Assembly: GCA_964607285.1 (NCBI GenBank)
Contig: CAZSJW010000001.1
Span: forward strand, 2,514-66,513
DNA: 64,000 bases
Origin: an uncultured Pseudomonadales bacterium
GTDB taxonomy: Bacteria; Patescibacteriota; Microgenomatia; UBA1400; PJMF01
Reading direction: 5' to 3'
The position numbers and the translations under genes are program-made. A model generated the notes under the pieces. It was not told the DNA's origin. It ran no database searches and saw only the letters and a list, made by a program, of their open reading frames with translations. Below, in pieces: positions 5,604 to 64,000 of the stretch (its first letter is position 1; every line of letters begins with the position of its first letter).

Positions 5604-6209
5604 ATGGCACGTTATACAGGACCAAAAAATAGATTAGCTCGCAAAGTGGGTGAAGACTTAGGACTTAAGTCAAACGCGCTTAAAGTTACGCGTCGTCTTA
5701 CTGTCGGCCCTGGTCAACATGGAGCAGCGAATCGCCGCAAGGTTTCTGACTACGGTGTGCAGCTTAAAGAAAAGCAAAAACTAAAGTACTTATATGGAAT
5801 CTTGGAGAAACAGCTTCGTCGTTTGTACGACAAGGCTACAAGTAATCCTACTGCAACTGGTGCAGCTCTCTTGAGTTTGCTTGAGAGAAGACTAGATAAT
5901 GTAGTGTATCGTCTTGGTTGGGCACCAACTCGTGCCTCTGCTAGACAGCTTGTCAACCACGGTCATGTGTTGGTAAATGGCAAGAAACTCGACATTTCTT
6001 CGTATCGAGTGCAGGTCAATGATGTCGTTTCACTCAAAGACTCTGGTTCAAAGATACCAGCAGTAGCAGACAGAATTAAAGATGAGTCTGCCTTACCAGG
6101 TTGGTTGGAGCGAAAGCACACGGTTGGAAAGATAAGTCGTTTACCTGAGAGAACTGACGTAACTGAAGTAATAACAGAACAATTAGTAGTAGAGTATTAC
6201 AGTCGATAG
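5604..6209 (+). CDS. rpsD: 30S ribosomal protein S4
   Basis: MARYTGPKNRLARKVG start, S4 domain RLDNVVYRLGWAPTRASARQLVNHGHVLVNG. Confidence 0.95.
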   Translation: MARYTGPKNRLARKVGEDLGLKSNALKVTRRLTVGPGQHGAANRRKVSDYGVQLKEKQKLKYLYGILEKQLRRLYDKATSNPTATGAALLSLLERRLDNVVYRLGWAPTRASARQLVNHGHVLVNGKKLDISSYRVQVNDVVSLKDSGSKIPAVADRIKDESALPGWLERKHTVGKISRLPERTDVTEVITEQLVVEYYSR

Positions 6210-6268
6210 ACTGAATCTGGAAACGGATTTTCCCGCCACCATGGGAAGAGATGAAACAAGGAGAATAT

Positions 6269-7216
6269 ATGGCACTAAATCTAGCACAATACCCAGGAAT
6301 GAACCCTTCATTCCAAATTACCAGTTCCTCTGCAACAGCCAGTAAGGCAAGCATTGCTTTAGAGCCGTTGGAGCAGGGATATGGTCATACGCTCGGCAAC
6401 GCTCTTCGACGGGTGATGTTAAGTTCATTACCAGGAAGTGCTCTTACTGTAGCTAGAATTGCAGGCGCAGATCATCAATTCTCAACAATTGCGGGAATGA
6501 CTGAAGACATATTGGAGCTTACCCTCAACTTAAAGCTAGTTCGCATCAAAGCAACCTCAGCAGCTGAGACGGGCACAATGCGTCTTACCGTAAAAGGACC
6601 CGCAACAGTTACAGCAGCTGACATTGAACCAACAGCTGGTTTCGAAGTAGTAAACGGTGAACAACACATAGCAACCTTGGCAAAAGGAGCTACTTTGGAC
6701 ATAGAGTTAGCAATTGAGTCTGGTGTCGGGTACTCAACAGCAAATGAGCGAGAGTCCGCAGGAATTGGAGAAATAGTACTAGATGCACTGTACTCACCAG
6801 TAGTAAAAGTTTCTTACCAAGTTGAAGCAACTCGTGTGGGCCGAAGAACTGACTACGATAAGCTAGTTCTTGATGTCCAGACTGACGGAAGCATTACTCC
6901 TCTTGAAGCAGTTCAGCAAGCAGCAATGATACTAGTTCGCCAGTTCGACCAAGTAGTTGAACCTGCACTAGTTGAAGAGCCAAAAATGGAAGTTGCACTC
7001 TCCCCAGAGGAAGCTGAAGTGCTTCGTCTGACTGTAGAGGAACTTGACTTACCAACTCGTATTGCAAACGCATTGCGAAAAGGTGGCTTCAAGACTGTTG
7101 GTGACTTAGTTGGTGTTCCTAGAAACACAGTCGCTAAAGTAAAAAACCTCGGTGGCAAAAGTGTAGTTGTGATTGAAGAAGCACTTGCTAAGAAAGGTGT
7201 TGAGCTAGGTAGTTAA
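6269..7216 (+). CDS. rpoA: DNA-directed RNA polymerase subunit alpha
   Basis: SD AAGGAG precedes the ATG at 6269. N-terminal domain LEPLEQGYGHTLGNALRRVMLSSLPG. C-terminal-domain helix-hairpin-helix LDLPTRIANALRKGGFKTVGDL. Confidence 0.93.
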   Translation: MALNLAQYPGMNPSFQITSSSATASKASIALEPLEQGYGHTLGNALRRVMLSSLPGSALTVARIAGADHQFSTIAGMTEDILELTLNLKLVRIKATSAAETGTMRLTVKGPATVTAADIEPTAGFEVVNGEQHIATLAKGATLDIELAIESGVGYSTANERESAGIGEIVLDALYSPVVKVSYQVEATRVGRRTDYDKLVLDVQTDGSITPLEAVQQAAMILVRQFDQVVEPALVEEPKMEVALSPEEAEVLRLTVEELDLPTRIANALRKGGFKTVGDLVGVPRNTVAKVKNLGGKSVVVIEEALAKKGVELGS

Positions 7217-7249
7217 GCTACAGCCAACCATTAGGAAAGAAAAAATTGT

Positions 7250-7702
7250 ATGAGACACAGAGTTAAAGTAAACAAGTTTAACCGTGACACCAAGCACAGA
7301 GAGTCTCTTTTCAAGAATCTCGTACGCTCTTTGGTGGAGCATGGTTCGATTACAACCACTGAACCAAAAGCAAAAGAAGTTAAACGTTTGGCTGATCGTT
7401 TGATAGGTAAAGCCAAAACAGATTCAGTACATATGCGTAGACAACTGCACGAGATATTCGGCAAGCGTGATGTGGTAAACACACTAGTGGACAGAATTGC
7501 TCCATTGTTTACGGATAGAGTGTCTGGTTTCACTACTTTGACTGCCGCAGGCACTCGCAGAGGTGATAATACACGAATGGTAGAGATTTCGCTGGTACTC
7601 AAACCCGAAGTTGCAGGGTTGAAAAATCCTTCACCATCGGTGGCAGCAGAAGTCAAGAAAGTGACTGCGAAACCAGCAGCGAAGTCAGTCAAGAAAGCCT
7701 AA
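7250..7702 (+). CDS. rplQ: 50S ribosomal protein L17 with Lys/Ala/Pro-rich C-terminal tail
   Basis: MRHRVKVNKFNRDTKHRESLFKNLVRSLVEHGSITTT is a canonical L17 N-terminus. Follows rpoA. Confidence 0.93.
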   Translation: MRHRVKVNKFNRDTKHRESLFKNLVRSLVEHGSITTTEPKAKEVKRLADRLIGKAKTDSVHMRRQLHEIFGKRDVVNTLVDRIAPLFTDRVSGFTTLTAAGTRRGDNTRMVEISLVLKPEVAGLKNPSPSVAAEVKKVTAKPAAKSVKKA

Positions 7703-7705
7703 ATA

Positions 7706-8149
7706 ATGCAAAAAACATACATGCAAAAAACAGCTGATGTGACCCGAGGATGGCACTTAGTTGATGCCGAGGATAAAATCCTAGGTGTGGTGGCTACAGA
7801 GATTGCTGTCAAGCTGATGGGTAAAGACAAAAAAGAGTACACACCACATATTGAGAGTGGTGACTATGTAGTTGTGATCAATGCTGCCAAAGTAGCAGTA
7901 ACAGGCAAAAAACGTGATCATAAAATGTATTACCGTCACTCTAACTACCCTGGTGGTTTGCGAGAAAAGACATTTGCTCAGCTCATAGAAACAAAGCCCG
8001 AGGACATTATCACCTTGGCAGTAAAAAATATGTTACCAAAAAACCGACTTCGTGATCCTCGTTTAGCTCGACTCAAAGTCTATGCTGACGACTCACACAA
8101 GCATCAAAGTCAACTCGGTGGTACTACCGAAGCAAGTACAAGCAAGTAA
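7706..8149 (+). CDS. rplM: 50S ribosomal protein L13
   Basis: W.LVDAEDKILG..AT.IA..L.GK.K..YTPH block. The start could be the second ATG at 7721. Confidence 0.93.
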   Translation: MQKTYMQKTADVTRGWHLVDAEDKILGVVATEIAVKLMGKDKKEYTPHIESGDYVVVINAAKVAVTGKKRDHKMYYRHSNYPGGLREKTFAQLIETKPEDIITLAVKNMLPKNRLRDPRLARLKVYADDSHKHQSQLGGTTEASTSK

Positions 8150-8169
8150 GTTACGCGAAACGAGATAGT

Positions 8170-8685
8170 ATGGCACTCAAGCTTAGTAAGAAAAACACTA
8201 AAGTTCAAAAAGTTGTAAAAAAAGCTACACCAGTAGCGCAAAAATCAACTCGTAGTTCTGGCGCAGTTCGCTCGCAGGTCACGCTCCCAACTGGCCAATA
8301 TACTGAGGGTGTAGGTCGCCGAAAGGTAGCAACTGCTCGTGTTCGTATTTACGAGGGTATGGGTGATTTTGTAGTCAATGGCCGTGTGGTGGGTGAGTAC
8401 TTTGCAACTGTTCCTTCTGCTACTCTTCGATATCTCCAAGCATTTGAAGTAACTGGTACCAAAGGCAAGTTTGCAGTTAGTGCAAAAGTGTCAGGCTCAG
8501 GTCCCTCAGCTCAATTGGATGCAGTCGTACATGGCTTATCTCGTGCGTTAGTAAAGTTCAATGGTGAATACCGTGGTTTGCTTAAAACAGCAGGCCTTCT
8601 GACTCGTGATGACCGCATGAAAGAGACTCGAAAAATCGGTATGGGTGGTAAAGCTCGCCGAAAACGACAGTCACCAAAGCGATAA
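8170..8685 (+). CDS. rpsI: 30S ribosomal protein S9 with ~40-aa basic N-terminal extension
   Basis: GVGRRKVATARVRI core and C-terminal RKIGMGGKARRKRQSPKR. Classical rplM-rpsI pair. Confidence 0.93.
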   Translation: MALKLSKKNTKVQKVVKKATPVAQKSTRSSGAVRSQVTLPTGQYTEGVGRRKVATARVRIYEGMGDFVVNGRVVGEYFATVPSATLRYLQAFEVTGTKGKFAVSAKVSGSGPSAQLDAVVHGLSRALVKFNGEYRGLLKTAGLLTRDDRMKETRKIGMGGKARRKRQSPKR

Positions 8686-52096: not shown

Positions 52097-52170
52097 CGGG
52101 GAGTAGTTCAGATGGCTAGAATGCTCGCATGGGGTGCGAGTGGTCGCAGGTTCGAGTCCTGTCTCCCCGA
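52097..52170 (+). tRNA. tRNA-Pro (anticodon GGG)
   Basis: Hand-folded cloverleaf. Acceptor CGGGGAG/CTCCCCG, D-arm with GG, anticodon stem CTCGC/GCGAG, loop AT-GGG-GT, 5-nt variable loop, T-arm GCAGG-TTCGAGT-CCTGT, discriminator A. CCA not encoded. Confidence 0.9.
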
Positions 52171-53831
52171 CATTCAAGGACAGAGGGTAGTTTTGCAATG
52201 GTTTCGAACTTAGGATTCCATTGGTGAGTCAATACTTTTTTGTCCTTTATAGTGAAGTTCAAAAAGACCATTCGAATGATACTGTCTGTTGCTAGGTGAT
52301 TATCGCTTGTTTTCAGAGTAGAAACGATGTTTTTGATAAAGTTCGAAAAGTCTGTGTAAGACATCACTTTTTCTTTGAGTAAAGATTGAGCATCAACTCG
52401 CTGGCTCTTTACCTGTGCCAGTTTAGCTTCTAATTGCTCGATTTCATCCCTGGCTTGGAGTATTTTTTCTCTTGCTACCTTGATTGACTTGTCATCACCC
52501 TCAAGTCTCACCACGATAAGCTGTTGGTCTGAAATAATTGTTTCCAGGTCGTTTATTTGTTTGGAAATAGAGCGTTGGTCGCTTTCCAACTCTTTGGCAG
52601 AGCTAACTAATTGGCGTTTGGCATCTGCCACGTACTGGTTGTAGGCTTTTTCGTCTATACCGATGCCACCTGCTAATACCTCATAAACATACTCAAAAAT
52701 AACTTTTGCCCTGATTTCTCGTAAACCCTTCACCTTGTGAGAATAACAACCGCCAGTGGAACACTTTATTCGTAGATAAGTGATAAGTGACTCTGGTTTA
52801 TTTTTATTGAGATATGTTGTCATCAGGTTACCGCAGTACCCACACACCACCATCTGGTCTAGCAGTGGAGTTGCTTTGTCCTGAGCCTTCTTATAGCCCC
52901 TTTTACCGTCCAGAATGTTTCGCAAGCGTAAGTAGTCCAGATATGACATCGCAGGTGTAAATAAGTGGTCGAACTTAGTCAGGTCAACCATATTTTTTCC
53001 ATACACGTAGTAGCCAGTATAGGAGGGGTCGAGAAACATTGCTGAGACGAGTTGTTTCGTCATCCTGGTTTTTTCGCCATTTTGACTGTAGTTGTTTTCA
53101 TTGAGGTACGATGCAATCACATCTTGTGATTTGCCTTCGATACCCATCTGAAACGCTTGCTGGATGAGTTCAAAGTTTTTCCCATCTTTACGTTGGCGTT
53201 TATTGATTACTTTGTAACCTCGCAGAGCCTTGTTGCCGATGGCTTTGCCTTCACCGATAATGTTTTCATTGCCTCTTGAAACGTTTATGGAGAGGTTATC
53301 ACTGTAGGCTTTGGCGAGTAGAAACTGTAAGCCAAGGGTCATCAGTCCATTCGGGTCACGCTGAAAAGAAAACTGTGGAAACTTGAGGTCTTTGATAATA
53401 CCTCGGTCGATTAGGTCAATAATCTCACCTGCATCCTTCATATTTCTCCCAAGGCGGTCTGGATGCCAGCAGATGATAGCGTTATACGATTTCTTAGACT
53501 TGATTTCGTCCATCATTTCTTCAAATACCTCACGGTTAGCCGATTTTCGGGCTGATTTTTCTTCCTTGAGAACATCTACCACCTTCAAACCCTCACGCTT
53601 GGCTAGAGCTTTACTGTCTTTGATTTGGTCTGGAATGGAGCGTTCTTGACGTTCTACTTGCTTGCCATCTTGGTTTTTCTTTTTACCCTTAGTAGATTTA
53701 CGAGCGTAAATGACATACACAGGTGGCTTGTCATCAGGGAGTGGTTTTCCCGCCTTTTCTAAGCGGTCAAAAACGATGCTTTGAGCTATTTCAAAGACTT
53801 GCTGTTTATATTCTGCATTGGTGTCTGGCAT
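52116..53831 (-). CDS. Large serine recombinase (phage-integrase type)
   Basis: N-terminal resolvase domain VIYARKSTKG...SIPDQ...DRLGRN. Recombinase domain. Zn-ribbon CGYCGN...KCSTGGC. Coiled coil. The last ~18 codons run antisense through the 3' part of tRNA-Pro. Confidence 0.88.
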   Translation of the reverse strand: MPDTNAEYKQQVFEIAQSIVFDRLEKAGKPLPDDKPPVYVIYARKSTKGKKKNQDGKQVERQERSIPDQIKDSKALAKREGLKVVDVLKEEKSARKSANREVFEEMMDEIKSKKSYNAIICWHPDRLGRNMKDAGEIIDLIDRGIIKDLKFPQFSFQRDPNGLMTLGLQFLLAKAYSDNLSINVSRGNENIIGEGKAIGNKALRGYKVINKRQRKDGKNFELIQQAFQMGIEGKSQDVIASYLNENNYSQNGEKTRMTKQLVSAMFLDPSYTGYYVYGKNMVDLTKFDHLFTPAMSYLDYLRLRNILDGKRGYKKAQDKATPLLDQMVVCGYCGNLMTTYLNKNKPESLITYLRIKCSTGGCYSHKVKGLREIRAKVIFEYVYEVLAGGIGIDEKAYNQYVADAKRQLVSSAKELESDQRSISKQINDLETIISDQQLIVVRLEGDDKSIKVAREKILQARDEIEQLEAKLAQVKSQRVDAQSLLKEKVMSYTDFSNFIKNIVSTLKTSDNHLATDSIIRMVFLNFTIKDKKVLTHQWNPKFETIAKLPSVLECRGDRTRTCDHSHPMRAF

Positions 53832-53881
53832 TATTTTTATCTCTTGAGTTATCTACCAGTATTATAGCTTTAGATACAAAA

Positions 53882-53904
53882 AGAGCCGAGGGTGAGTCGG
53901 CTCT
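53882..53904. terminator. Hairpin AGAGCCGA-N7-TCGGCTCT just upstream of the recombinase gene
   Basis: 8-bp perfect stem flanked by an A-run on the left and a T-rich run on the right. Could terminate in either direction. Confidence 0.4.
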
Positions 53905-54269
53905 TTACTTTGCTGTGTTCTAGCCTTTAGGATTTACTTGTCATTGACAGCAACCTTTTGTTTGACGCCTGGCTAAGCTTCATCTCTAAATCTGCATTTT
54001 GTTGCCAGTTTGTGCGGTCTTCAAAATTGATTGGCGCTAAAAGCTTATCAGAATATGCCTTAGCTTCTGGAGTTCTAACACCATCAACCACTGGCTCTTG
54101 ACCTGTTTCTTCAAAATATAATTGGTCTGCTCCAGAGGAAGGTTTTGATGACTTTGATCAAGCGGCTGCTCATTATCATTCTGTTGGGAACTTTATTGTT
54201 GTATTTGTTAATAGTTTCGATGACACGGATGTAGACTCATATGTTGCTTGCACAAGACTTCGACACGAA

Positions 54270-54863
54270 ATGAACCATGCGGGAAGCGTAGTTAAGCATC
54301 GAGCATATCCTAACGACCAGGGAGGGAAAGACTATAAACAGTATAGGGTTGGAGCGAGAATTGACCCAAAAGAACAGGGTGGTGCAGTACTTGGTCTGGT
54401 CTTTGATGAAGGACACCATTCGGTTGAGGATAAGCTTGACTCATTCTCATTTTCTAAATACAGAGGAATGGATCAATTTCTATCTGGCTTACCTGATTTG
54501 AATGAGGTCTTTCCAGGAGCTGATACTAAACTGAGAGGATTATTTTTAGATGCACTTATACGGAGCGAGGTAAGCCCTGATCAGATGCTCATAAGCTATC
54601 GCACAGTACACAGAGATGGTACTGCTTTTCATTTGCTAGATTATGCTGAAAGGTACACCGATTACGAAAAACTAATGGTGAAACTGTATACTAGCAATCC
54701 CAAACTGTACCAGTTAGCCGTGGACTGTATATATGGAGACAATATGATTGCTTTTGCCAAGGAGATCGATACAACATTTGGATCAGGTTATTTTCGAAGA
54801 TTAATGGAAGCAAAGGACAGACAAGCCGCCATCAAATTGTATGAAGAATTGGACACACTATGA
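54270..54863 (+). CDS. Hypothetical protein; annotated ATG sits inside an HEMNH (HExxH) motif
   Basis: 197-aa ORF. The same frame is open back to 54102 (..SYVACTRLRHEMNHAG..) without any ATG/GTG/TTG. Confidence 0.55.
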   Translation: MNHAGSVVKHRAYPNDQGGKDYKQYRVGARIDPKEQGGAVLGLVFDEGHHSVEDKLDSFSFSKYRGMDQFLSGLPDLNEVFPGADTKLRGLFLDALIRSEVSPDQMLISYRTVHRDGTAFHLLDYAERYTDYEKLMVKLYTSNPKLYQLAVDCIYGDNMIAFAKEIDTTFGSGYFRRLMEAKDRQAAIKLYEELDTL

Positions 54864-54972
54864 ACAAAAGTGAAGTACTAGCAATCAGCACAAGTTCCAA
54901 AATGGGTAATCAGATGGGTTCTATCGTGCTAAAATTAAACAGCAAAGATGCTAAATGCAGATCAGGTGATGT

Positions 54973-56376
54973 ATGGAAATTGCACAATTTCTTTTAGGTC
55001 ATGAGCAGGGTGGGAATGAAGAGATCTTCTTAAACAAGGTTGCAGCCATAACTGGCATTAAGCCTTTGAAACTCTCAGACAACCCTGCCTGGCTCGCCGA
55101 TACGTTTAAACAGTACTCCGATCGACTTAAGTGGAGAAAAAATAGAAATACTGATCACCAGTATATTCATGATGAAGGAATGCATCCTTGTGCATTTAGT
55201 CCTGTTTTGCCTAATAGTTTGTTGCGATCACATACTTTTGCAATTACGGAGCAAATGATAGCGTTTGTGGAAGTGTTTGAGGCGTATGTGCAAAGAGTAC
55301 CAACTATCACTGAACTAGAAATCATTGGACTGCTTAGCACTAAGGATACTGTTCAGTCAAAATTTTCCAACACAGCAATAAATGCCATAAATGCTTTGTA
55401 CTATTCGCTCCCCGATTCTTTTTCTGAAGAGAGTGGTTTGGCTTCAATGTTTACTAACAATCGAATCATTAATCGGGCAATAGGATCCTTTATTGATACG
55501 CATGTATCGGGTAATGCACTCAGCATTGGTGAGATTTGCTCTGGTCGAAGAGCTGCCAAGTGGACCGAGATTGCAAGTAAACTGCCCAATAAATCAGTCA
55601 GTATTCATCTTTCAGATTTTGTTGCACCAACACTTCCTGACCTTACGCAGGAATCTAATGTCACAGCAGTTACCTCTGAGCAGTATTCGCTTTTGGATGA
55701 ACTACCATTTTTACCTGACAGTGAAAAAAGAGATGTGCATTTAGCTACATATGGGTTTGATAGTGTTTGGTCAGAGCATGACGCTCGTTATCATAAACAG
55801 AATGGCAAATGGTATCGTGAATTTAGTAGAGTTAAGGTACTTGATACGCACCCGCGAAAAGACCAAATGATAGCAGCTCTGAGGACTGGTACTGCATTTC
55901 CTGGAATGCAACTATCTGATTTTGGCAGTGTGTTTGTTGAATCTGGCATAGAAGAGGTGGACATGAGTATGGAAGCTAATGGGTCGATAATTGCTGATGA
56001 ACTAGAAGACAGCTCACGAATTGAGCTAAGCTACCCTGGTGGTATGATCCATCACATACAGGCAGCATTTCAGCGGCAGCTTAAACAAGATGGTATCTTT
56101 ATCATTGGTGACACTGCAGCTATCAGCAATGGTGAGAGGTTTTCGACTAAACAAAGCTATGTGAGTGGCGTTGCAGCACGGTATAAAAGGGAAGACTATC
56201 TATTGGCAAAAAGAATCCTCGATGAATTTGGGTTCACTGCTGATATATATCCCCTCAATGATTTTGTGACTGGGGTGCTCGGTGAGGGCTGGAAATCAGA
56301 GGCAACTACAAATGAACATGATCTAATTACAGAATCACTCACTAGTGTAATAATGGTAGTGAAAAAAAAGAGTTAG
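54973..56376 (+). CDS. Hypothetical 467-aa protein (weak resemblance to class I SAM-methyltransferase fold)
   Basis: Long ORF. LSIGEICSGRRAAKW and IFIIGDTA loosely resemble methyltransferase motif I and post-I strands. Not verified. Confidence 0.6.
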   Translation: MEIAQFLLGHEQGGNEEIFLNKVAAITGIKPLKLSDNPAWLADTFKQYSDRLKWRKNRNTDHQYIHDEGMHPCAFSPVLPNSLLRSHTFAITEQMIAFVEVFEAYVQRVPTITELEIIGLLSTKDTVQSKFSNTAINAINALYYSLPDSFSEESGLASMFTNNRIINRAIGSFIDTHVSGNALSIGEICSGRRAAKWTEIASKLPNKSVSIHLSDFVAPTLPDLTQESNVTAVTSEQYSLLDELPFLPDSEKRDVHLATYGFDSVWSEHDARYHKQNGKWYREFSRVKVLDTHPRKDQMIAALRTGTAFPGMQLSDFGSVFVESGIEEVDMSMEANGSIIADELEDSSRIELSYPGGMIHHIQAAFQRQLKQDGIFIIGDTAAISNGERFSTKQSYVSGVAARYKREDYLLAKRILDEFGFTADIYPLNDFVTGVLGEGWKSEATTNEHDLITESLTSVIMVVKKKS

Positions 56377-56380
56377 CTAG

Positions 56381-56653
56381 TTAGTCTCGGAGCTCAAAAA
56401 AAAGGCCGTTGATAGTGAGACCGTTGGGATGCACTTGCAGAGTCCCTTTGTTGCCAGATCCAATCTGTTTTGTTCCGACAGATCCATTCTTTTCACCTCC
56501 ACAAAAAATGCTGCCCCCATACGGTAAGTGTTTCTTCAACTCTTTATCTATAATCTTTTGCTCTTCGTACTGCTTTTTATCTTCATTCCAGACGAATACC
56601 TTACTGCGTCCTCCAAACACTATCTCAGCAATTCTGGAACCAAGTTCTCCCAT
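56381..56653 (-). CDS. Hypothetical 90-aa protein
   Basis: ORF preceded by AAGGA and TATAGT/TATACT-like boxes. Convergent with 54973..56376, with a 4-nt gap. Confidence 0.5.
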   Translation of the reverse strand: MGELGSRIAEIVFGGRSKVFVWNEDKKQYEEQKIIDKELKKHLPYGGSIFCGGEKNGSVGTKQIGSGNKGTLQVHPNGLTINGLFFELRD

Positions 56654-56834
56654 ATGTATCCTTTAGTATACTATACTACTTACCACTCTTGCAGCACAAT
56701 AATTTCACAAGCAAAAAGTGGTGATTGTATACTCACATGAAATGGACAACTACCACTGCTCATTATGATTAAAGAAATACTTTTTGACATGTATGGGGTG
56801 ATTATTGATATCAGAAACTGATACAATCAAGACA

Positions 56835-57407
56835 ATGCAAGTAAGTAAGCTCAAGCCATGGCAAGTAGTTAGCACGAAGGTAGTCCACACAACTCCTTGG
56901 ATTGAAGTCGTTGAAGATCTTTGTAAAATTGATGCTACTTCTCTGACCTATACATATACTCGCAGAGTAGATGAAGGACCTTTGATTATTGCTGAGGCTG
57001 AGGATAACAAGATTTGGTTGGTTCGGCAGTATAGGCATGCTATCAAAAAAATTATATGGCAGTTTCCTGTAGAAGGAAAACTAGTTGCGGAATCCTGGGA
57101 AGCGGCTGCACAGCGAGGACTTGAGGAAGAACTTGGTTTACACGCTGACAGATTGGTAGAGTTGGGGACATTTTACCCAGACCCTGGTGGTTTGGAGCAA
57201 AAGTATAAGGCCTTTGTTGCTACAGGCCTGCATCCATCAACTGCTCAACACAGCGACCCTAACTTAGACGAAGTTGAACAGCTAGAGGCAGGTTGCTTTT
57301 CTTTGCAAGAAGTTGAGCAGCTGATAACTGAGGGAGAAATCTGTGATAACTGGACACTGTCGGGATTATTTTTGTATCGGCGATACCGTCATTCGCTAGG
57401 ATTGTGA
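56835..57407 (+). CDS. NUDIX hydrolase (ADP-ribose pyrophosphatase-like)
   Basis: Nudix box GKLVAESWEAAAQRGLEEELGL (G-x5-E-x7-REuxEExGu). ATG at 56835, or the tracked TTG at 56805. Confidence 0.85.
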   Translation: MQVSKLKPWQVVSTKVVHTTPWIEVVEDLCKIDATSLTYTYTRRVDEGPLIIAEAEDNKIWLVRQYRHAIKKIIWQFPVEGKLVAESWEAAAQRGLEEELGLHADRLVELGTFYPDPGGLEQKYKAFVATGLHPSTAQHSDPNLDEVEQLEAGCFSLQEVEQLITEGEICDNWTLSGLFLYRRYRHSLGL

Positions 57408-57742: not shown

Positions 57743-58909
57743 ATGTCAGATCAAACTATAAATTGTCCAAAATGTTCGACCGCAATCCCCCTGTCTCAAG
57801 CACTCACGGCACAGCTGGAGTCTCAGTTTGCAAAGCGGTTTGATGAGCAGTTAGTTACTGAAAAACGCAAGCTGTGGGCTCAAGCTATGCAGGCTGCTGA
57901 AAAAAAAGAACTAACGAGCAGAAAGGAGTTGGAAGAGCAACTTAAAGAAAAAGCTCAAAAATTGGAAGCAGCAGAAAAAGCTGAGCTGGAACTCAGAAAA
58001 AAATCGCGTGATATTGAGGAGCGAGAGCGAACATTTGATCTGGAACTGCAGCGAAAGCTTGATGCGGAGCGGACGCAATTGATCTCTAAAGCAAAACAAG
58101 AGGAAGCTACAGAGTTTACCAAAAAACTGATGGAGAAAGATACACAACTTGATAGCATGAAGAAGACAATCGAGGACCTCAAACGTAAGAGTGAGCAGGG
58201 ATCAATGCAAGTGCAGGGTGAGTCACTCGAACAGACATTGAAAGACCTTCTTAAAAATACCTTTCCTGCTGATGAAGTGTCTGATGTACCCACTGGAATA
58301 ACTGGTGCAGATTTAGTGCAACAGGTGCAAGGTAGGGTGGGTGCAAAAGTGGGCACAATTCTTTGGGAGTCCAAAAACACTAAAGCATTTAGTGAAGGTT
58401 GGTTGACAAAGCTAAAACAGGATCAGGGCAAAGTGAATGCTGAGATTGCAGTATTAGTTACGCAAGTCCTGCCGCCAGAAATTGCACCGTTTGGTGTAAA
58501 AAATGGAGTGTGGATAGTGGATGTGCAACATGCTGTACCAGTGGCAAGTATTTTGCGTATGCAGCTGATTGAGTTATTTAAGTTGGCTCGTTCCGTTGAA
58601 GGTCAAGATGAAAAGATGACTCAGTTGTACGGGTACTTAACTGGTCCACAGTTTAAAAATCGTGTTGAGAACATGGTAATTGCCTTCATGTCTATGCAAC
58701 AAGATTTAGCTGCAGAAAAGCGTGCATACCAGAAGCTTTGGGGAAAACGGGAAAAAGAACTGGAAAAATTGCTTGCACACACAGTGGGCATGTATGGTGA
58801 TTTTCAAGGAATTGTCGGTGGCTCACTGCCCACCATTCAGCAACTTGAACTTGCTTCTACTGATATGGACAGTGATCAACCGAGTTTACTTGGTAACGGA
58901 GAACTATAG
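57743..58909 (+). CDS. DUF2130-like protein: Zn-ribbon + coiled coil + PD-(D/E)XK-type nuclease core
   Basis: N-terminal INCPKCST. ~150-aa Lys/Glu coiled coil. C-terminal GADLVQQV...GTILWESKNTKAFSEGWLTKLKQDQ (D...ExK). Confidence 0.75.
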   Translation: MSDQTINCPKCSTAIPLSQALTAQLESQFAKRFDEQLVTEKRKLWAQAMQAAEKKELTSRKELEEQLKEKAQKLEAAEKAELELRKKSRDIEERERTFDLELQRKLDAERTQLISKAKQEEATEFTKKLMEKDTQLDSMKKTIEDLKRKSEQGSMQVQGESLEQTLKDLLKNTFPADEVSDVPTGITGADLVQQVQGRVGAKVGTILWESKNTKAFSEGWLTKLKQDQGKVNAEIAVLVTQVLPPEIAPFGVKNGVWIVDVQHAVPVASILRMQLIELFKLARSVEGQDEKMTQLYGYLTGPQFKNRVENMVIAFMSMQQDLAAEKRAYQKLWGKREKELEKLLAHTVGMYGDFQGIVGGSLPTIQQLELASTDMDSDQPSLLGNGEL

Positions 58910-58912
58910 CTG

Positions 58913-61900
58913 ATGTCAAGTAACTTTGCAGCAGAGTATGCCCGTCTCAATGCACAACAGCGGAAAGCTGTGGACACCTTAGAAGGTCCAGTCATGGTGA
59001 TAGCTGGCCCAGGTACTGGAAAGACCCAAGTACTGGCAATGCGAATTGGTCAGTTACTCAAGAAAACTGACATAGAGCCGCGAAACATTTTAGCTTTAAC
59101 GTTCACCGATGCTGCAGCTACGACAATGCGACATCGTTTAGCAACACACATTGGTTCAGCAGCATACAGCGTGCAGATTGCCACGTTCCACTCTTTTTGT
59201 AGCCAGGTGATCGCTGATCACCCCGAGTCATTTCCCTTTGAGCGAGACAGCTTACCACTAACAGAGCTTGAGAGATATGAACTGATAGGTGAGATTTTGA
59301 CAACTGAGCCACTGGAAGAGCTTCGTCCATTGAATAGACCATTGTTCTACAGTAAAGACTGTTTGCGGGCAATTTCTCAATTAAAACGTGAGTATGTATC
59401 TCCTGATGCACTTCGTTCAATGGTTGTTGCCGATCTTGATTTACTAGAACAAGGAATTCCAAAAGCAACAGTTGCACAGCGGCGAATTATTGAAAAACGA
59501 CTAAAAAAGCAGGAAGAACTTGCTCATGTATTTTCAAAGTATGAGGAGCGATTGCGGTCTGCACATAAAATTGATTTTGATGACATGATTAGCTTTGTTG
59601 TCACTGGATTTAAAAATGACCCAATGTTACTGCAGGAGTATCAGGAGCTGATTCACTATATTCTCGTTGATGAGTACCAAGACACAAATTCAGCACAGAA
59701 CGAGATAGTATCTTTGCTTGGTTCATATTGGGGTGAGCAGGCTAATGTATTTGTGGTTGGTGATCCTCATCAGTCAATCTTTCGGTTTCAGGGCGCGTCA
59801 ATGGAAAATATGTTTAGGTTTGCGGTCCAGTACCCAACTGCTGCAGTCGTGACACTGACTGACGGGTACCGTTGTGGGCAGCATATGTATAGTGCTGCAC
59901 ATGCGTTGGTTGCAGCTCAGGATTTACCAATGCCTTTTGAGCTTCAGCCGGGAGTCGCACAGGTACTTACTGATTCACTCTCAACACAGTTGCGCTCACA
60001 GGCAGCAAATCCAGGTATGGTTCGTTCTGTGCAGTTACCGACAAGCACAGCAGAGCAACTCTACATAGGGGAACAAATACAGCAACTTCACTCTGATGGT
60101 GTTCCACTATCACAGATAGCTGTTCTATACAGAACCAATGCAGAAGGCTTAGAGTTAGAGAACGTTCTTGGATCACTTGGTGTTCGCTATCAAATTGAGC
60201 GTGGCTCAAATGCTCTAGAAGTTCCGTTGATTACCCAGATTCTCAGCCTAATTTCTATGCTTTTTCATTTGCGCTCTGCACAAGATAGTGAGGCTTTTAC
60301 TGTGATGTGTTTTGACTGGATTGCAGTAGATAGATTGGCTGTGTATAAACTCACCCGTCAAGCTGCGATTGCTGGCAGATCACTTGTTTCTTTAGCGGAA
60401 CTTTCATGGGATGAGTTTCAATTACAACAAGCACAAGTGGATGTGGCTGAGCACCTTTCTGAAGCAGAGCATAGTTCGGTACACAGTTTAGTTGAGCAGT
60501 GGATTAGGTGGATCACAACTGAGCCAAGCATCCCATTTTCTCATTGGTTTAGTTTGGTACTTGAGCAAACGTCATTGATAGATTGGATTGTTGCCAGACC
60601 ACAGTCGCAAGAACTATTGAACGCTGTGCAAGGCATTTTTTCGCTCATACAAGATTCGGTAGCAAACGATCATTCGTTCAATTTAGGTGACTTCATTGCT
60701 ATGATTGACACTATGCAGGAGCACGGCATCGCAGTTCGTCAGGAAGATGTGCGTACGACAGCAGAAGCTGTGACTCTAAGCACTGCGCATAGTGCCAAGG
60801 GTAAACAGTGGCAGCATGTTTTTATATACAACTGTATTGACTCACATTGGGGAGGATCGAGAAGTGTAGATAAGTTGCCCCTACCAGAGCACATACTCAA
60901 ATATAGCGCTGTTGCAGACAAGTTAGCACAAGCCGAGGCAGATGATAGACGGTTGTTGTATGTTGCTATGACTCGTGCACGTAAGACATTGACCATCACT
61001 TATCCTGCGTTTGTCGTTTCACAAGGCAAACAGAAACCACAGTTGCCAAGTCGTTTTCTATCCCCTTTAGAAGACTATATTCAGTGTGTTTCAAACAAAG
61101 ATGTTACAGAATTTGGTGAAGCTGCTGAAGCAACAATACCTAAATTGCTTTTACCAAATCCAGCTATGTCCACTGCAGAGTCTATAGAAGCTGAACGCAG
61201 CTTTTTCTCGTATCTGGTCAGTACGTTCTCACTGTCTGTTTCAGCACTTAACCATTACTTAGCAGATCCCAAGCAGTTTAGGGATCAGGATTTGCTGCGC
61301 GTGCCTAGCATAAAAGATGCCTATTTTTCGTATGGTTCGGCTATGCACAAAGCCCTAGAACTTTGGCAGCGGCCGAAACTTTCAGGTGGTTTGCCAGCCT
61401 CCTTGCCAGTGGTCATGCAAGAATTTGATCGGGCTTTGGCAAAGGAAGTACTAACTGCTGATGAGTTTACTCGCAGACAAAAAAAGGGTCATCAAGTTTT
61501 GAGTGAATACCTTTCCCATGAAGAGGGTGCCCTTAGCCATGTGTTTAGTATTGAGCGGCGGTTTGGCTCGTTGCGTTCACCCGTATACCTGGATGATATA
61601 CCACTGAAAGGTCGAATTGATCGGATGGACTGGATTGACCAGCAAGCAAGTTTAGTAAGGGTTGTAGATTACAAAACGGGCAAACCAAAAACTGTTGGTC
61701 AAATCATGGCAACTGTAGAGTCGGTAGAACTATCTGAACGAGAGCGGTCATTGCCAGAAACAATTAGAGGCCCGATGATCCGTCAGTTGGTTTTCTATAA
61801 GTTACTTGCAAATTTGGATCCTAGTTTTCAGGGGACAGTCACCCATGGAAGGTTTATTTTTGTTGAACCAAACAAAAGCACTAGGACGCCATTCGTGGTT

Positions 61901-62005
61901 CGTGAGTTTGAGATCACAGACCAAGCTGTTGCCGATCTTAGCGCATTGATAAAAACTATCATGACTGAAGTGAGACAACTAGTTTTTTTAGACAAGGCAT
62001 CCTGA
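58913..62005 (+). CDS. UvrD/PcrA-type SF1 helicase fused to a C-terminal RecB-family PD-(D/E)XK nuclease
   Basis: Walker A AGPGTGKTQVL, ILVDEYQDTN, VGDPHQSIFRFQGA, TAHSAKGKQWQHVF, YVAMTRARKTL. C-terminal GRIDRMDW...VRVVDYKTGKP. Confidence 0.9.
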   Translation: MSSNFAAEYARLNAQQRKAVDTLEGPVMVIAGPGTGKTQVLAMRIGQLLKKTDIEPRNILALTFTDAAATTMRHRLATHIGSAAYSVQIATFHSFCSQVIADHPESFPFERDSLPLTELERYELIGEILTTEPLEELRPLNRPLFYSKDCLRAISQLKREYVSPDALRSMVVADLDLLEQGIPKATVAQRRIIEKRLKKQEELAHVFSKYEERLRSAHKIDFDDMISFVVTGFKNDPMLLQEYQELIHYILVDEYQDTNSAQNEIVSLLGSYWGEQANVFVVGDPHQSIFRFQGASMENMFRFAVQYPTAAVVTLTDGYRCGQHMYSAAHALVAAQDLPMPFELQPGVAQVLTDSLSTQLRSQAANPGMVRSVQLPTSTAEQLYIGEQIQQLHSDGVPLSQIAVLYRTNAEGLELENVLGSLGVRYQIERGSNALEVPLITQILSLISMLFHLRSAQDSEAFTVMCFDWIAVDRLAVYKLTRQAAIAGRSLVSLAELSWDEFQLQQAQVDVAEHLSEAEHSSVHSLVEQWIRWITTEPSIPFSHWFSLVLEQTSLIDWIVARPQSQELLNAVQGIFSLIQDSVANDHSFNLGDFIAMIDTMQEHGIAVRQEDVRTTAEAVTLSTAHSAKGKQWQHVFIYNCIDSHWGGSRSVDKLPLPEHILKYSAVADKLAQAEADDRRLLYVAMTRARKTLTITYPAFVVSQGKQKPQLPSRFLSPLEDYIQCVSNKDVTEFGEAAEATIPKLLLPNPAMSTAESIEAERSFFSYLVSTFSLSVSALNHYLADPKQFRDQDLLRVPSIKDAYFSYGSAMHKALELWQRPKLSGGLPASLPVVMQEFDRALAKEVLTADEFTRRQKKGHQVLSEYLSHEEGALSHVFSIERRFGSLRSPVYLDDIPLKGRIDRMDWIDQQASLVRVVDYKTGKPKTVGQIMATVESVELSERERSLPETIRGPMIRQLVFYKLLANLDPSFQGTVTHGRFIFVEPNKSTRTPFVVREFEITDQAVADLSALIKTIMTEVRQLVFLDKAS

Positions 62006-62006
62006 C

Positions 62007-63290
62007 ATGCTAGAACTAGACAAACTGCCTCTCAGAGATAAAAAAGTGCTTCGAGACACTATGGAGTTTTTTTTTGTTGAAAACACGGATGTTGTTGCAG
62101 CTATTTTACATGAGTTTTCACTTGCGGATGATGGGTTGGCTGAGTTTAGTGCTAAAGTGGAAGCTTTAGCTCGAAAATTGGTGTTGCTGTTAGGTTCTGA
62201 GCCGCAAGCAATCAAAACAGTTGAGTTTTTGCTTGCGCGAGACCTGAACCTTAGTGATTCAAGGCGAATTATTCTGTACTCCTTTCTGCTATTTTTTACA
62301 GGTGACGTACAGGAGGAAGACTTACCAAGTAGTACTGAAAATATCAACCAGGAATTTGATAAGAAACTATGGTTGTCAGGTTTTTTATCACAGAACAGTC
62401 AATTATCAGTGGCTGAGGTGCGAGTGGTGGAAGCATTTATTGAACATAGAGTAACTGTGAAGGTAATTAATGGAGTCAATGTATTACTGGTTACTGATGA
62501 TCATTCAAACTATGAGACTACGCAAAGAAATGAAAGTGCTTCTCAAGCAGTTGAAATTATACTTGGATCCCAAAACACAAGTGGGGTGCTTGTTGAATAT
62601 TTTCCTCAGGAGTTGAAAGAGAATGCAAGTAAGAATGTGCTTGTAAGAAATGCACTTAAAGGAATGCGTTCAGGTACCTTTGGGGCATTTTTAAAGAAAT
62701 ACCATGATTCTAGGTTTGAGAGTGCTGTTCCATATTTGGACCATGCTAATGCTGTAGGTAAACCAGTGTGGGTCGCTGACACAGCGAATAAAATTACTCA
62801 TGAATTGGCTGAAGTCCCTCTTTTGTACTCGTGGTGGGTTAGTGTTGCAGTGGTCGCATTAGCAGGGTGTCTATCACTGGCTCCATCGTCTCAGGAAATG
62901 CTAGAGGTTGAGAAGCTGCTTGAATTGCTTTCTGTGGCAAGTTCCGCAGCTGGGTATCTAGAACTTTTTTTTAAACCACTGTTTTTCAAATTGGATGACA
63001 TGATGCCCTGGTTTGAAGCTGTTTTTCTACAAGCAGATGATGCGCGACGCATTAGAGTAGCAAGAGCTATTGGTGTCTTGACAGCAGATCAGCAAGTTGG
63101 CTCTACGCTACTTGTGGTGTACCCCGATGCGCATTTGCGGCGAATACGTCACTATCTAGAGCATCCTGAGTTTGCTGCTTGGAAGGACAAAATATACAAA
63201 ACAGTTCTTTTCTGGTTAGATTATGAACTACGCACTTACAGATTCGATGCTCAACAAAACTTGTGGAACAAGAACACTCAAAAATTTTGA
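62007..63290 (+). CDS. Hypothetical 427-aa protein translationally coupled to the helicase-nuclease
   Basis: ATG 1 nt after the helicase stop. No recognised motif. One central hydrophobic stretch WWVSVAVVALAGCLSLA. Confidence 0.7.
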   Translation: MLELDKLPLRDKKVLRDTMEFFFVENTDVVAAILHEFSLADDGLAEFSAKVEALARKLVLLLGSEPQAIKTVEFLLARDLNLSDSRRIILYSFLLFFTGDVQEEDLPSSTENINQEFDKKLWLSGFLSQNSQLSVAEVRVVEAFIEHRVTVKVINGVNVLLVTDDHSNYETTQRNESASQAVEIILGSQNTSGVLVEYFPQELKENASKNVLVRNALKGMRSGTFGAFLKKYHDSRFESAVPYLDHANAVGKPVWVADTANKITHELAEVPLLYSWWVSVAVVALAGCLSLAPSSQEMLEVEKLLELLSVASSAAGYLELFFKPLFFKLDDMMPWFEAVFLQADDARRIRVARAIGVLTADQQVGSTLLVVYPDAHLRRIRHYLEHPEFAAWKDKIYKTVLFWLDYELRTYRFDAQQNLWNKNTQKF

Positions 63291-63302
63291 TAAGTAGCTT
63301 TA

Positions 63303-64000
63303 TTATTTCCATCGCTCTGTAGCAAAGTACACAGTGTCTTTGAACTCAGTCGAAACAGGGATACCTGTCCAGTGCGGATACCAGACTGCAAACGTGATTA
63401 AGATCAGAAGTACTAGTGCAACAGAAAGTTTACGCAGCTCAGGGTGTTTAAGCAAAACCCAACTCAAAATAATTGCCATGAGTGGTACAGCAGGGGCGTA
63501 GTGGTAGAAAAACATGATCCGAGGAGAGAGTTGCCAAGGTAGCCAGACGGCAAAGTAACTAGCAATCATCAGACCCATTGGTTGTATTGCTGAGTCCCGT
63601 ATGGCTCGTACTAATCGGGAAGCAGTGATTTGTTTTTTTTGCAACTTCTTTGTTACTTGTTTGAGAAGAGCTAGTGATGAAATTACCACTGCTGCTGCAC
63701 CTGCCCAAAATAGCATCGGATTGCCAAATGCATATATGTCTCCTCGCTTGCCATCTGCATACTGGACATGATACCAAGCTGGCCTCATGTTTGTTACCCA
63801 CTGCCATGGTCTTGACTGATACGGGTGTTCTGCTTTTAAATTTGTTTGGTACCAGTAGATTTGCTTGTGCATGTCAAAAAAATGCTGCAAATCTTTACCC
63901 TGCATGAACATGTGGCTGTAACTAAGTAGATACATTGTGAGAGGAATTATGGCCAAACAGAGAACTCTTGTGAGTATCCACTGCAGCCAGTATCCTGTTT
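63303..64000 (-). CDS. GT39/PMT-like phospholipid-carrier-dependent glycosyltransferase, C-terminal part (5' end off-window)
   Basis: The frame is open to the window edge. The EHPYQSRPWQWVTNMRPAWYH block is typical of PMT-family enzymes. C-terminal TMs. Confidence 0.75.
   Translation of the reverse strand, partial: TGYWLQWILTRVLCLAIIPLTMYLLSYSHMFMQGKDLQHFFDMHKQIYWYQTNLKAEHPYQSRPWQWVTNMRPAWYHVQYADGKRGDIYAFGNPMLFWAGAAAVVISSLALLKQVTKKLQKKQITASRLVRAIRDSAIQPMGLMIASYFAVWLPWQLSPRIMFFYHYAPAVPLMAIILSWVLLKHPELRKLSVALVLLILITFAVWYPHWTGIPVSTEFKDTVYFATERWK

Follow-up and report, generated by a model that had tools for sequence, protein, structure and literature searches.

The large serine integrases of phages and integrative and conjugative elements (phiC31, Bxb1, A118, SPbeta SprA and the staphylococcal CcrA/B) comprise a catalytic resolvase domain, a recombinase domain and a zinc ribbon with a coiled-coil insert. 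The same order of resolvase and recombinase domains, followed by a putative zinc ribbon with a coiled coil, is found in the large serine recombinase (LSR) encoded next to tRNA-Pro(GGG) in the DNA analysed here, a stretch of 64 kb (the window) from contig CAZSJW010000001.1 of an uncultured member of the Patescibacteria, or candidate phyla radiation (CPR). What the window shows is probably left over from a mobile element whose general type is known, and its family appears to be new in layout. As with the phage and conjugative integrases, the ends of its elements share a short core and no long repeats. Three differences were observed. Integration takes place at the terminal bases of a tRNA gene and not in a protein-coding gene; the phage attachment site (attP) lies inside the integrase open reading frame (ORF), so that integration would swap the C-terminal tail; and the elements, of 3.5–6 kb, contain no phage or conjugation genes.

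Islands and prophages of the P4 type, which use tyrosine integrases, likewise integrate at the 3′ end of a tRNA gene, leave the tRNA intact and carry the integrase gene adjoining it. In the present family, the enzyme is a serine rather than a tyrosine recombinase, its ORF overlaps the tRNA, and the repeat at the far end measures 5–7 bp in the subclade (16 bp at locus L117; L numbers denote the loci of relatives) instead of tens of bp. The classical tyrosine-type tRNA island therefore does not describe the window, where the enzyme is of the serine type and no repeat of the tRNA 3′ end was found.

In archaeal integrases of the SSV1 type, attP lies within the int gene, which is split upon integration into a tRNA gene. 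The location of attP in the integrase ORF and the tRNA target are shared with the present family, and in both, integration alters the integrase product. However, the SSV enzymes are tyrosine recombinases whose gene is cut into two large, presumably inactive parts, whereas here the last ~46 codons would be exchanged and the integrated ORF keeps all catalytic and DNA-binding domains. Mycobacteriophages BPs and Brujita show integration-dependent immunity, in which attP lies within the repressor gene and integration removes a C-terminal degradation tag. There too, integration swaps the C-terminus of a regulatory protein with attP in the 3′ end of its ORF, but it is the repressor that is affected and the integrase is of the tyrosine type; here it is the integrase itself, and the roles of its tail are putative.

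Serine recombinases were also found with integrative elements in an LSR-bearing minority (27/937) of Prochlorococcus tycheposons and cryptic elements (10.1101/2020.12.28.424599), and Paracoccus phage vB_PamS_Pami6 has a predicted tRNA-Met site (PMC6536676). Because of such serine-recombinase elements, including the predicted tRNA-Met site of Pami6, targeting of tRNA genes by serine integrases is rare but probably not unprecedented. No ORF/tRNA overlap or attP-in-ORF layout is reported for these elements, and the likeness drawn here is one of description. The searchable literature yielded no description of the attP-in-ORF layout for serine integrases, and the clade of tRNA-end-specific serine integrases with attP in their own ORF is large and, as far as that literature shows, previously undescribed. 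The family moves minimal elements of 3.5–6 kb among CPR bacteria, whose routes of gene exchange are poorly known, and it targets the last bases of many different tRNA genes while leaving the tRNAs intact. Natural tRNA-specific integrases with defined sites could also serve as tools for genome engineering. For the window itself, the result is mostly a correction: what an earlier note on this DNA had proposed as a putative island with candidate novel cargo is best read as a stranded integrase beside ordinary, partly damaged chromosome.

The tRNA-Pro(GGG) locus and its recombinase family

The sole tRNA gene that ARAGORN detected in the window was tRNA-Pro(GGG) (52097..52171, + strand). It is an intact core gene divergent to recA, a layout kept in the four nearest species representatives (L001–L004, RecA 72–83% identical), and it forms the target (attB side) of the element. 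Over its 75 nt it was 100% identical to the tRNAs of L003 and L097, both of which lack the LSR. The genes flanking it assign the organism to Patescibacteria/CPR, and the RecA of the window was 83% identical to that of a Paceibacterota metagenome-assembled genome.

The LSR gene (52116..53831, − strand) encodes 571 aa in the integrated-state form, and it was matched by Pfam, PHROG and NCBIfam models: the Resolvase domain PF00239 (6.7e-19, residues 40–196), the Recombinase domain PF07508 (7.2e-09; 36.3 bits, cutoff 21.1) and the integrase family PHROG 95 (1.9e-50). The zinc ribbon PF13408 reached 18 bits, under its cutoff of 25.3; many homologues do carry PF13408, and residues C330, C333, C357 and C362 are invariant across 15 homologues. 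The coiled coil was seen by eye only. The catalytic motifs YARKS46T and H123-P-D-R126-L-G-R129-N were conserved or invariant (alignment A2). The score against the CcrA model NF047344 of NCBIfam was 60.6 bits against an equivalog cutoff of 700, and the LSR is therefore not a Ccr.

The LSR is transcribed convergently with tRNA-Pro, as seen from the sequence layout, and its stop codon TAG (52116–52118) lies inside the D-arm of the tRNA. The tRNA gene and the 571-aa recombinase ending within it had been recognized in the earlier note and were recovered by ARAGORN, the ORF list, Pfam and PHROG. Residues C554–F571 (CRGDRTRTCDHSHPMRAF) are the reverse complement of tRNA-Pro read as codons (the last 17–18 codons). 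The estimate of about 18 antisense codons was thus right, whereas the restriction of the overlap to the 3′ half of the tRNA was not: the overlap spans 56 nt, about three quarters of the gene. The same 18 aa were obtained by translating the identical tRNA of L003, a relative without recombinase. The overlap of the ORF with the tRNA is not due to chance: across the LSR family, it is seen again with identical geometry and in the same frame.

Upstream of the LSR gene, a 5′ region (53832..53879, −) contains a TATAAT box (53861–53866) conserved in 5/5 aligned LSR loci and is a putative LSR promoter. A generic promoter scan made no call at this box because a −35 box is absent. Next to it lies a bidirectional terminator-like hairpin (53880..53906; GAGCCGA, 7 nt, TCGGCTC), called on both strands by the terminator scan, which insulates the LSR gene. 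It folds at −15.9 kcal/mol (z = −4.85), and L083 and L092 share it without any base change.

Homologues of the LSR number in the hundreds, and the best 120 span 33–93% identity. The great majority of these 120 end in ..GRGDRTRTxDLxxPxxA(L/R), or stop at ..GRGDRT or ..GAEN. The residues RTRT correspond to AGG ACT CGA ACC, the reverse complement of the tRNA T-arm GGTTCGAGTCC, and the short-tailed forms arise where the T-loop supplies an in-frame TGA. Among 59 distant metagenome loci with a complete 3′ end, the LSR stop fell inside an antisense tRNA in 39; a further 5 read through an antisense tRNA and a further 3 lie just upstream of one. At least 12 tRNA identities occur at the family loci (Pro, Leu, Val, Tyr, Gly, Thr, Glu, Gln, Ser, Arg, Trp, and Ile). 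The close homologues abut tRNA-Pro with anticodon CGG (L081, L082), TGG (L083, L084) or GGG (L092, L180). The family is widespread in Patescibacteria/CPR and integrates at the extreme 3′ end of tRNA genes, with the tRNA left undamaged.

The LSR frame is fixed relative to the tRNA, and the reverse complement of the anticodon is therefore read as a codon, so that the tail carries the cognate amino acid (Pro here). At the anticodon, the tail of the window LSR (52119–52171, −) reads H-P-M, compared with V-P-N where the tRNA is CGG and L-P-K where it is TGG. In other homologues the residue is D, V, H or M, and the tRNA identity can thus be read from the protein tail.

Element ends and the integrase tail

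The core of the left attachment site (attL) in the window is CCGAC (52167..52171, +), made up of the final 3 nt of the acceptor stem plus the discriminator A and one further C, and it is the putative crossover region. The element-side arm (P′ arm; 52172..52215, −) falls within the final LSR codons (..NPKFETIAKLPSVLE). This arm was near-identical in the window, L081, L083, L092, and L180, despite the differing tRNAs and flanks. An empty site was provided by L097 from GCA_020049755.1, the closest relative with a contig (RecA 90.5%, RNase Y 78% identical to the window). It has the identical tRNA, no LSR, and its own terminator hairpin directly after the tRNA (..CCCCGACAT followed by ATAAAAAAGCTGGCATTAGCCAGTTTTTTT). 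The empty site reads CCCCGACAT followed by ATAAAAAAGC, and the filled site of the window reads CCCCGACAT followed by TCAAGGACAG, which puts the window junction at 52171–52173 and defines the tRNA-side junction only. A junction at the last bases of the tRNA also follows from both ends of the intact elements in L081, L083, L096, and L100.

The earlier proposal of a recombination site at the tRNA is borne out by this junction. The insertion is also not part of a conserved core order, L001–L004 and L097 all lacking the recombinase, and the recombinase is not degenerate, its ORF being intact with conserved catalytic motifs; the empty allele is represented by L097. L001–L004 have tRNA-Pro(GGG) and lack both the LSR and the four ORFs to its right. 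A relaxed tblastn search for LSR remnants in these four genomes matched the tRNA antisense only and was discarded. No second copy of the tRNA 3′ end was present in the window with ≤3 mismatches permitted in 24 nt, in line with the earlier observation that no long direct repeat lay to the right. Inverted-repeat symmetry between the LSR end and the LSR upstream region was looked for in the window and not found.

The canonical element was defined from L081, L083, L096, L100, L103, and L180. The samples with L081, L083, and L180 are ERR14173557, SRR2082580, and the source of GCA_020047555.1. The intact elements measured ~3.5 kb in L081, 3.6 kb in L096, 3.7 kb in L100, 3.9 kb in L103, and 6.1 kb in L083, and these five loci deserve attention. 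DNA homology between L081 and L096 starts abruptly at GTCGGCAGTC(A/T)(T/G)TGACT.CTTT(C/T)GAACTT, and the L096 element starts directly after the stop of an ABC-transporter gene. The left-end motif GTCGGCAGTCATTGACTACTTTCGAACTT was identical at 29/29 positions between L081 and L083 and at 25/29 in L096; in L083, this 29-mer arm is located 4.4 kb upstream of the LSR. The LSR-side end of each element reads ..CCTTGAAT, then GTCGG, then the tRNA antisense. GTCGG (LSR strand) was directly repeated at both element ends in L081, L083, and L096, so that a direct repeat of 5 bp, equal to the terminal CCGAC of the tRNA, marks both limits of the elements. In L100, where the LSR is 40% identical, the direct repeat is 7 bp (GTCGGGC). 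The distal arm consists of GTCGG followed by CAGTCATTGACT.. and then a tail exon; GTCGGCAGTCNNTGACTNCTTTYGAACTT marks the arm, and RQS.T.FEL.FDFIKQL...LLT.NQ.GS.M.FVL the tail peptide.

A generic search for longer tRNA-end repeats in distant members was informative for L117, L103, and L167 only. In L117 (6228 and 11517), 16 nt of the 3′ end of tRNA-Pro(TGG) bound ~5.3 kb, and the alternative in-frame tail has only 9 codons. In L167 (6838 and 10585), the end repeat extends over 9 nt on the element side, perhaps a sign of tandem or nested insertions.

The conserved content of the elements comprises a gene of 76–88 aa, a gene of 129–140 aa (o129), the TATAAT box and the LSR, with a terminator hairpin in some copies. 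By their position only, the two small genes are candidates for recombination directionality factors. The cargo slot varies. An Erm-like rRNA adenine methyltransferase was found in L081 (9038–9922), L096 (6139–7029), and L180 (191–1075), all on the − strand; L083 carries an AAA_16/STAND-like protein of 807 aa (5986–8409, −) together with an Xre regulator and a DUF4352 protein. The Erm-like proteins scored 152–157 bits with the broad Erm model, under its cutoff of 212. The assignment of the RrnaAD gene beside the LSR in L081 and L096 to host ksgA, which would have left an element of the LSR alone, was rejected: it scored better as Erm than as KsgA, under both cutoffs, and it travels with the element. 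It may be a gene of the macrolide-resistance type that moves among CPR bacteria.

The window LSR was 87–93% identical to the LSRs of L081, L083, L092, and L180. L092 (RecA 78.6%, LSR 89%) and L180 (RecA ~72%, LSR 88%), more distant relatives, carry their LSRs at the same site, although L097, the closest relative, has none. The LSR is more conserved than RecA and patchily distributed, and is therefore horizontally mobile. The same LSR type was observed at three tRNA-Pro isoacceptors. L180 (GGG site by recA) and L081 (CGG site by a PEGA-domain gene and mreB) shared 86% DNA identity over 2.9 kb that included part of o129, the Erm-like gene and the LSR, which indicates that a block of at least 2.9 kb at the LSR end travels together between tRNA-Pro isoacceptors; the L180 contig starts inside o129, short of the distal arm. 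A mobile unit of the LSR alone had been considered, since the homology among the window, L081, L083, and L092 covers the hairpin, promoter and LSR, and it was dropped after both element ends had been located in L081, L083, and L096 and the segment within the L180 contig, cargo included, had turned out to be common to L180 and L081. Six Logan contigs with an 89%-identical LSR (L092–L095 among them) all start at one base, 133 nt upstream of the LSR ATG, and the contigs of the closest relatives (L097, L098, and L099) break at or just past tRNA-Pro. The shared breakpoints suggest strain-level heterogeneity at the locus in several samples.

Since attP lies inside the LSR ORF, the far end of the element encodes an alternative in-frame LSR tail. 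Joining the right to the left element end across the core leaves the LSR frame open (..KLPSVLE-C-R followed by QSLTTFELAFDFIKQLVQLPQLEKDMRDYALLTQNQDGSRMFFVL and a stop). The resulting extension of 46 aa does not differ in length or stop between L081, L083, and L096, and in L096 it has no start codon of its own. Homologous in-frame tails were found in L100 (49 aa) and in L103 (47 aa), a distant homologue whose LSR is 34% identical. The tail exon thus occurs in five independent relatives, at 46–49 aa, in frame with the LSR and with a conserved stop. Its dN/dS was 0.28, 0.25, and 0.46 in the LSR frame, whereas the other two frames had 2–4 stops and ratios of ~0.8–1.7, a pattern indicative of purifying selection on the tail exon.

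According to the proposed mechanism, the element would pass through a circular intermediate, with crossover at a dinucleotide within the 5-bp core. In the free circle, the LSR ORF would cross the core into the other element end and encode an integrase of ~600 aa with the ~46-aa tail. Upon integration, the tail exon would be left at the far end (the right attachment site, attR), and the ORF would read into the tRNA antisense to a stop in the T-loop or D-arm, giving an integrase of ~570 aa with a tRNA-derived tail. The element ends compared thus point to a C-terminal tail exchange upon integration, and with attP in its own ORF the C-terminus of the enzyme depends on the integration state.

This layout yields a testable hypothesis on serine integrases that sense their own state. 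Tentatively, attP in the integrase ORF might act as a built-in state sensor that distinguishes the free ~600-aa form from the integrated ~570-aa form, whose gene runs head-on into the tRNA gene. Exchange of the tail, possibly aided by the two small proteins, might govern in which direction recombination proceeds or how stable the enzyme is, as a natural, cis-encoded counterpart of a directionality factor; the copy in the window would then be a locked integrated-state enzyme. The long and short integrases may differ in function, the small conserved proteins may serve as directionality factors, and head-on transcription of the tRNA may damp the integrated LSR gene.

The probably incomplete copy in the window

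In the window, the LSR is in the integrated configuration at tRNA-Pro(GGG), representing the tRNA-proximal end (attL) of a small integrative element. DNA homology to L081, L083, L092, and L180 extends from the tRNA junction to 53869–53906 only (LSR, 5′ region, and hairpin), and that to L083 and L092 stops at the hairpin. When both junctions were looked for in the 64 kb, attL was present and no attR arm, core-plus-arm or tail exon was found anywhere. The 29-mer of the distal arm was absent from motif scans of the whole window, 16/29 being the highest agreement reached in correct orientation from the LSR as far as the downstream helicase gene. The conserved small genes were absent by tblastn, and the tail exon by tblastn and by a profile HMM over all six frames.

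Beyond the hairpin lies a 3′ gene remnant co-directional with the LSR (53927..54100, −), without start codon context and without a Pfam match. Its frame ends at 53927, 20 nt before the hairpin, which mirrors the order DUF4352, hairpin, LSR of L083, and it is probably a leftover of the cargo slot. It meets the start of a truncated gene at a putative deletion or rearrangement junction (54099..54108), with an in-frame stop at 54099–54101. The truncated gene (54102..54863, +; alignment A7) belongs, by HMMER, to a family of ~340 aa with an LRHEMxHAGS (HExxH-like) motif. A HMMER search against 1.84 billion representatives gave 20 matches, whose full-length members have 325–360 aa. Homology of the window to this family begins at 54105–54111, which corresponds to about residue 92–100 of the homologues; the full-length members align from about their residue 95–113, and the window contains no copy of the N-terminal ~100 aa. 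An open frame runs from 54102, in which the ATG at 54270 encodes the M of the conserved HEMNH motif, and there is no start codon upstream. The 197-aa ORF (54270..54863, +) listed in the earlier note as a whole gene is therefore the distal part of this 5′-truncated one, while the other ORFs of that list exist as described.

We consider it most probable, at roughly 0.6, that 52172–~54100 is a stranded remnant, that one deletion removed the distal arm and the start of the neighbouring gene, and that the ORFs at 54102–56653 are flanking chromosome of a variable region. A single deletion from inside the element through attR would have taken the small genes, most of the cargo, the tail exon, attR and ~100 codons of the adjoining gene, and would account for both the missing distal arm and the truncated neighbour. 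The integrase would be intact yet stranded, and with attL intact and attR missing it is predicted to be unable to excise anything. Since the copy lost its far end, the neighbouring "cargo" genes are probably ordinary chromosome, and on present evidence the four ORFs are not to be pursued as a defence system.

Several points weigh against this reading. The comparisons contained no insertion-free genome of the same species. The L097 contig, with the empty site, stops 117 nt past the tRNA; the sole link between the L097 flank and the window was a 12-mer at 54215, which is non-significant (E ~0.3). This flank had been tried as a guide to the right boundary and was set aside, the 12-mer and its frame-breaking extension being taken as chance. 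The region from the tRNA to the helicase is not conserved among L001–L004, so that 54102–56653 could just as well be what is left of the cargo. In an old remnant, an intact LSR ORF would not be expected; either the loss would have to be recent, or the gene was kept for another reason. Finally, the predicted attP junction of the circular form (..CCTTGAAT GTCGG CAGTCATTGAC..) had 0 matches in the JGI metagenomes and the distal arm 0 matches in IMG/VR, where the LSR relatives were distant only (30–39% identity), and excision was not directly seen for any member of the family.

The second explanation is that the element is truncated but that 54102–56653 is surviving cargo, an internal deletion having clipped the HExxH-family gene and the distal arm having been lost separately. 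These ORFs are rare and orphan-like and lie in a variable region with slightly low GC across 54500–55500, and the 467-aa protein among them (o467) has a methyltransferase fold, as canonical elements carry a methyltransferase. However, two independent losses are needed instead of one deletion, and homologues of these ORFs did not turn up in any member of the family. We regard it as unlikely; assignment of the ORFs to the cargo is unproven and, on parsimony, they are probably chromosomal.

The model of the earlier note, an intact element that starts at the tRNA, reaches ~56760, carries the four ORFs as cargo and has an attR unlike those of the relatives, appears somewhat more doubtful still. Its size of 4.6 kb would be within the 3.5–6 kb of the intact relatives, L001–L004 lack these ORFs, cargo varies among relatives (Erm-like methyltransferase versus STAND-like NTPase), and tetranucleotide deviation is mildly raised over 53000–56500 (z ~1.1–1.5). 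Nevertheless, relatives whose LSRs are 87–93% identical use a 29-nt arm, with 100% agreement between L081 and L083, of which the window offers 16/29 at best in the right place and orientation; neither the tail exon under selection nor either of the two conserved small genes is present; the first "cargo" gene has no start codon and is missing ~100 codons at its 5′ end; and relatives of o467 were found without an LSR. In tetranucleotide composition, only the LSR region stands out (z = 2.1–2.2); the ORFs further right are unremarkable, with z ~1.1–1.5 next to the LSR and ≤0.8 by 55001–57000.

It is improbable that the element is intact but larger or rearranged, for example by inversion or further insertions, with attR and the tail exon beyond the 64 kb. 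In its favour are the intact LSR ORF, with 93% identity to the LSR of an intact element, and the end of the window just 11.8 kb from the tRNA. However, the helicase-nuclease gene and a PMT-like gene (58913–63956) are syntenic with the tRNA-Pro/recA neighbourhood of L001 and L003, as is o217. The helicase operon, shared with relatives that lack the LSR, is therefore chromosomal, and the chromosome resumes inside the window. Moreover, all intact relatives are of 3.5–6 kb, and the truncated gene at 54100 marks a break beside the LSR module. The right boundary that had been tentatively placed at ~56760, or at ~63300 with the operon included, thus finds neither attR features in the window nor agreement with the synteny of LSR-less relatives. 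A domesticated, non-mobile recombinase kept by tRNA-Pro for a host function such as antisense control of the tRNA is very improbable, since an intact ORF without attR and transcription convergent with the tRNA would fit it, but the gene is patchy among close relatives, its identity exceeds that of RecA, and the same LSR type is present at three different tRNA-Pro genes with full element ends.

Genes to the right of the probable remnant

The truncated gene is followed by a 45-aa ORF (54860..54997, +), ATGA-coupled to it and without a family match, by o467 (54973..56376, +) and by a convergent 90-aa ORF without a match (56381..56653, −). None of the four ORFs had a match in Pfam, NCBIfam, PHROGs or PADLOC. 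They are not a recognizable defence or toxin-antitoxin system, contrary to the earlier suggestion of such a cargo, and the absence of the distal element features, the truncation of the first ORF and the o467 homologues without LSR speak against their being cargo at all.

The family of the truncated gene, which is metalloprotease-like in its HExxH (HE..HAGS) motif, has ~20 representatives in 1.84 billion clusters and no Pfam model; a single-sequence AF2 prediction of the truncated gene was uninformative (pLDDT 38). The o467 protein has a class I SAM-methyltransferase fold, confidently closest to COG1565/NDUFAF7 (MidA), yet no sequence-family match. Eight homologues were found in 5.8 billion proteins, and the two contexts recovered were both without LSR; o467 is probably a chromosomal accessory gene. 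Look-ups of the exact protein gave no entry in the index for o467 or for the window LSR. In one of these contexts, L091 (7767–10626), two tandem o467 paralogues lie between a glycosyltransferase and a TatD DNase in an ordinary-looking operon.

The short ORFs at 56409–56826 before the NUDIX gene showed no HAD-like similarity, and the truncated HAD-like stub described there was not recovered. The NUDIX gene (56805) has an N-terminal extension of ~60 aa that lacks a match. Further right, an operon at 57743–63290 (+) encodes a DUF2130 protein (388 aa), a UvrD/PcrA-like helicase of 1030 aa with an AddB-like nuclease C-terminus, and a 427-aa protein without a match. In PADLOC, this operon gave generic GajB-like and weak LmuB-like matches only.

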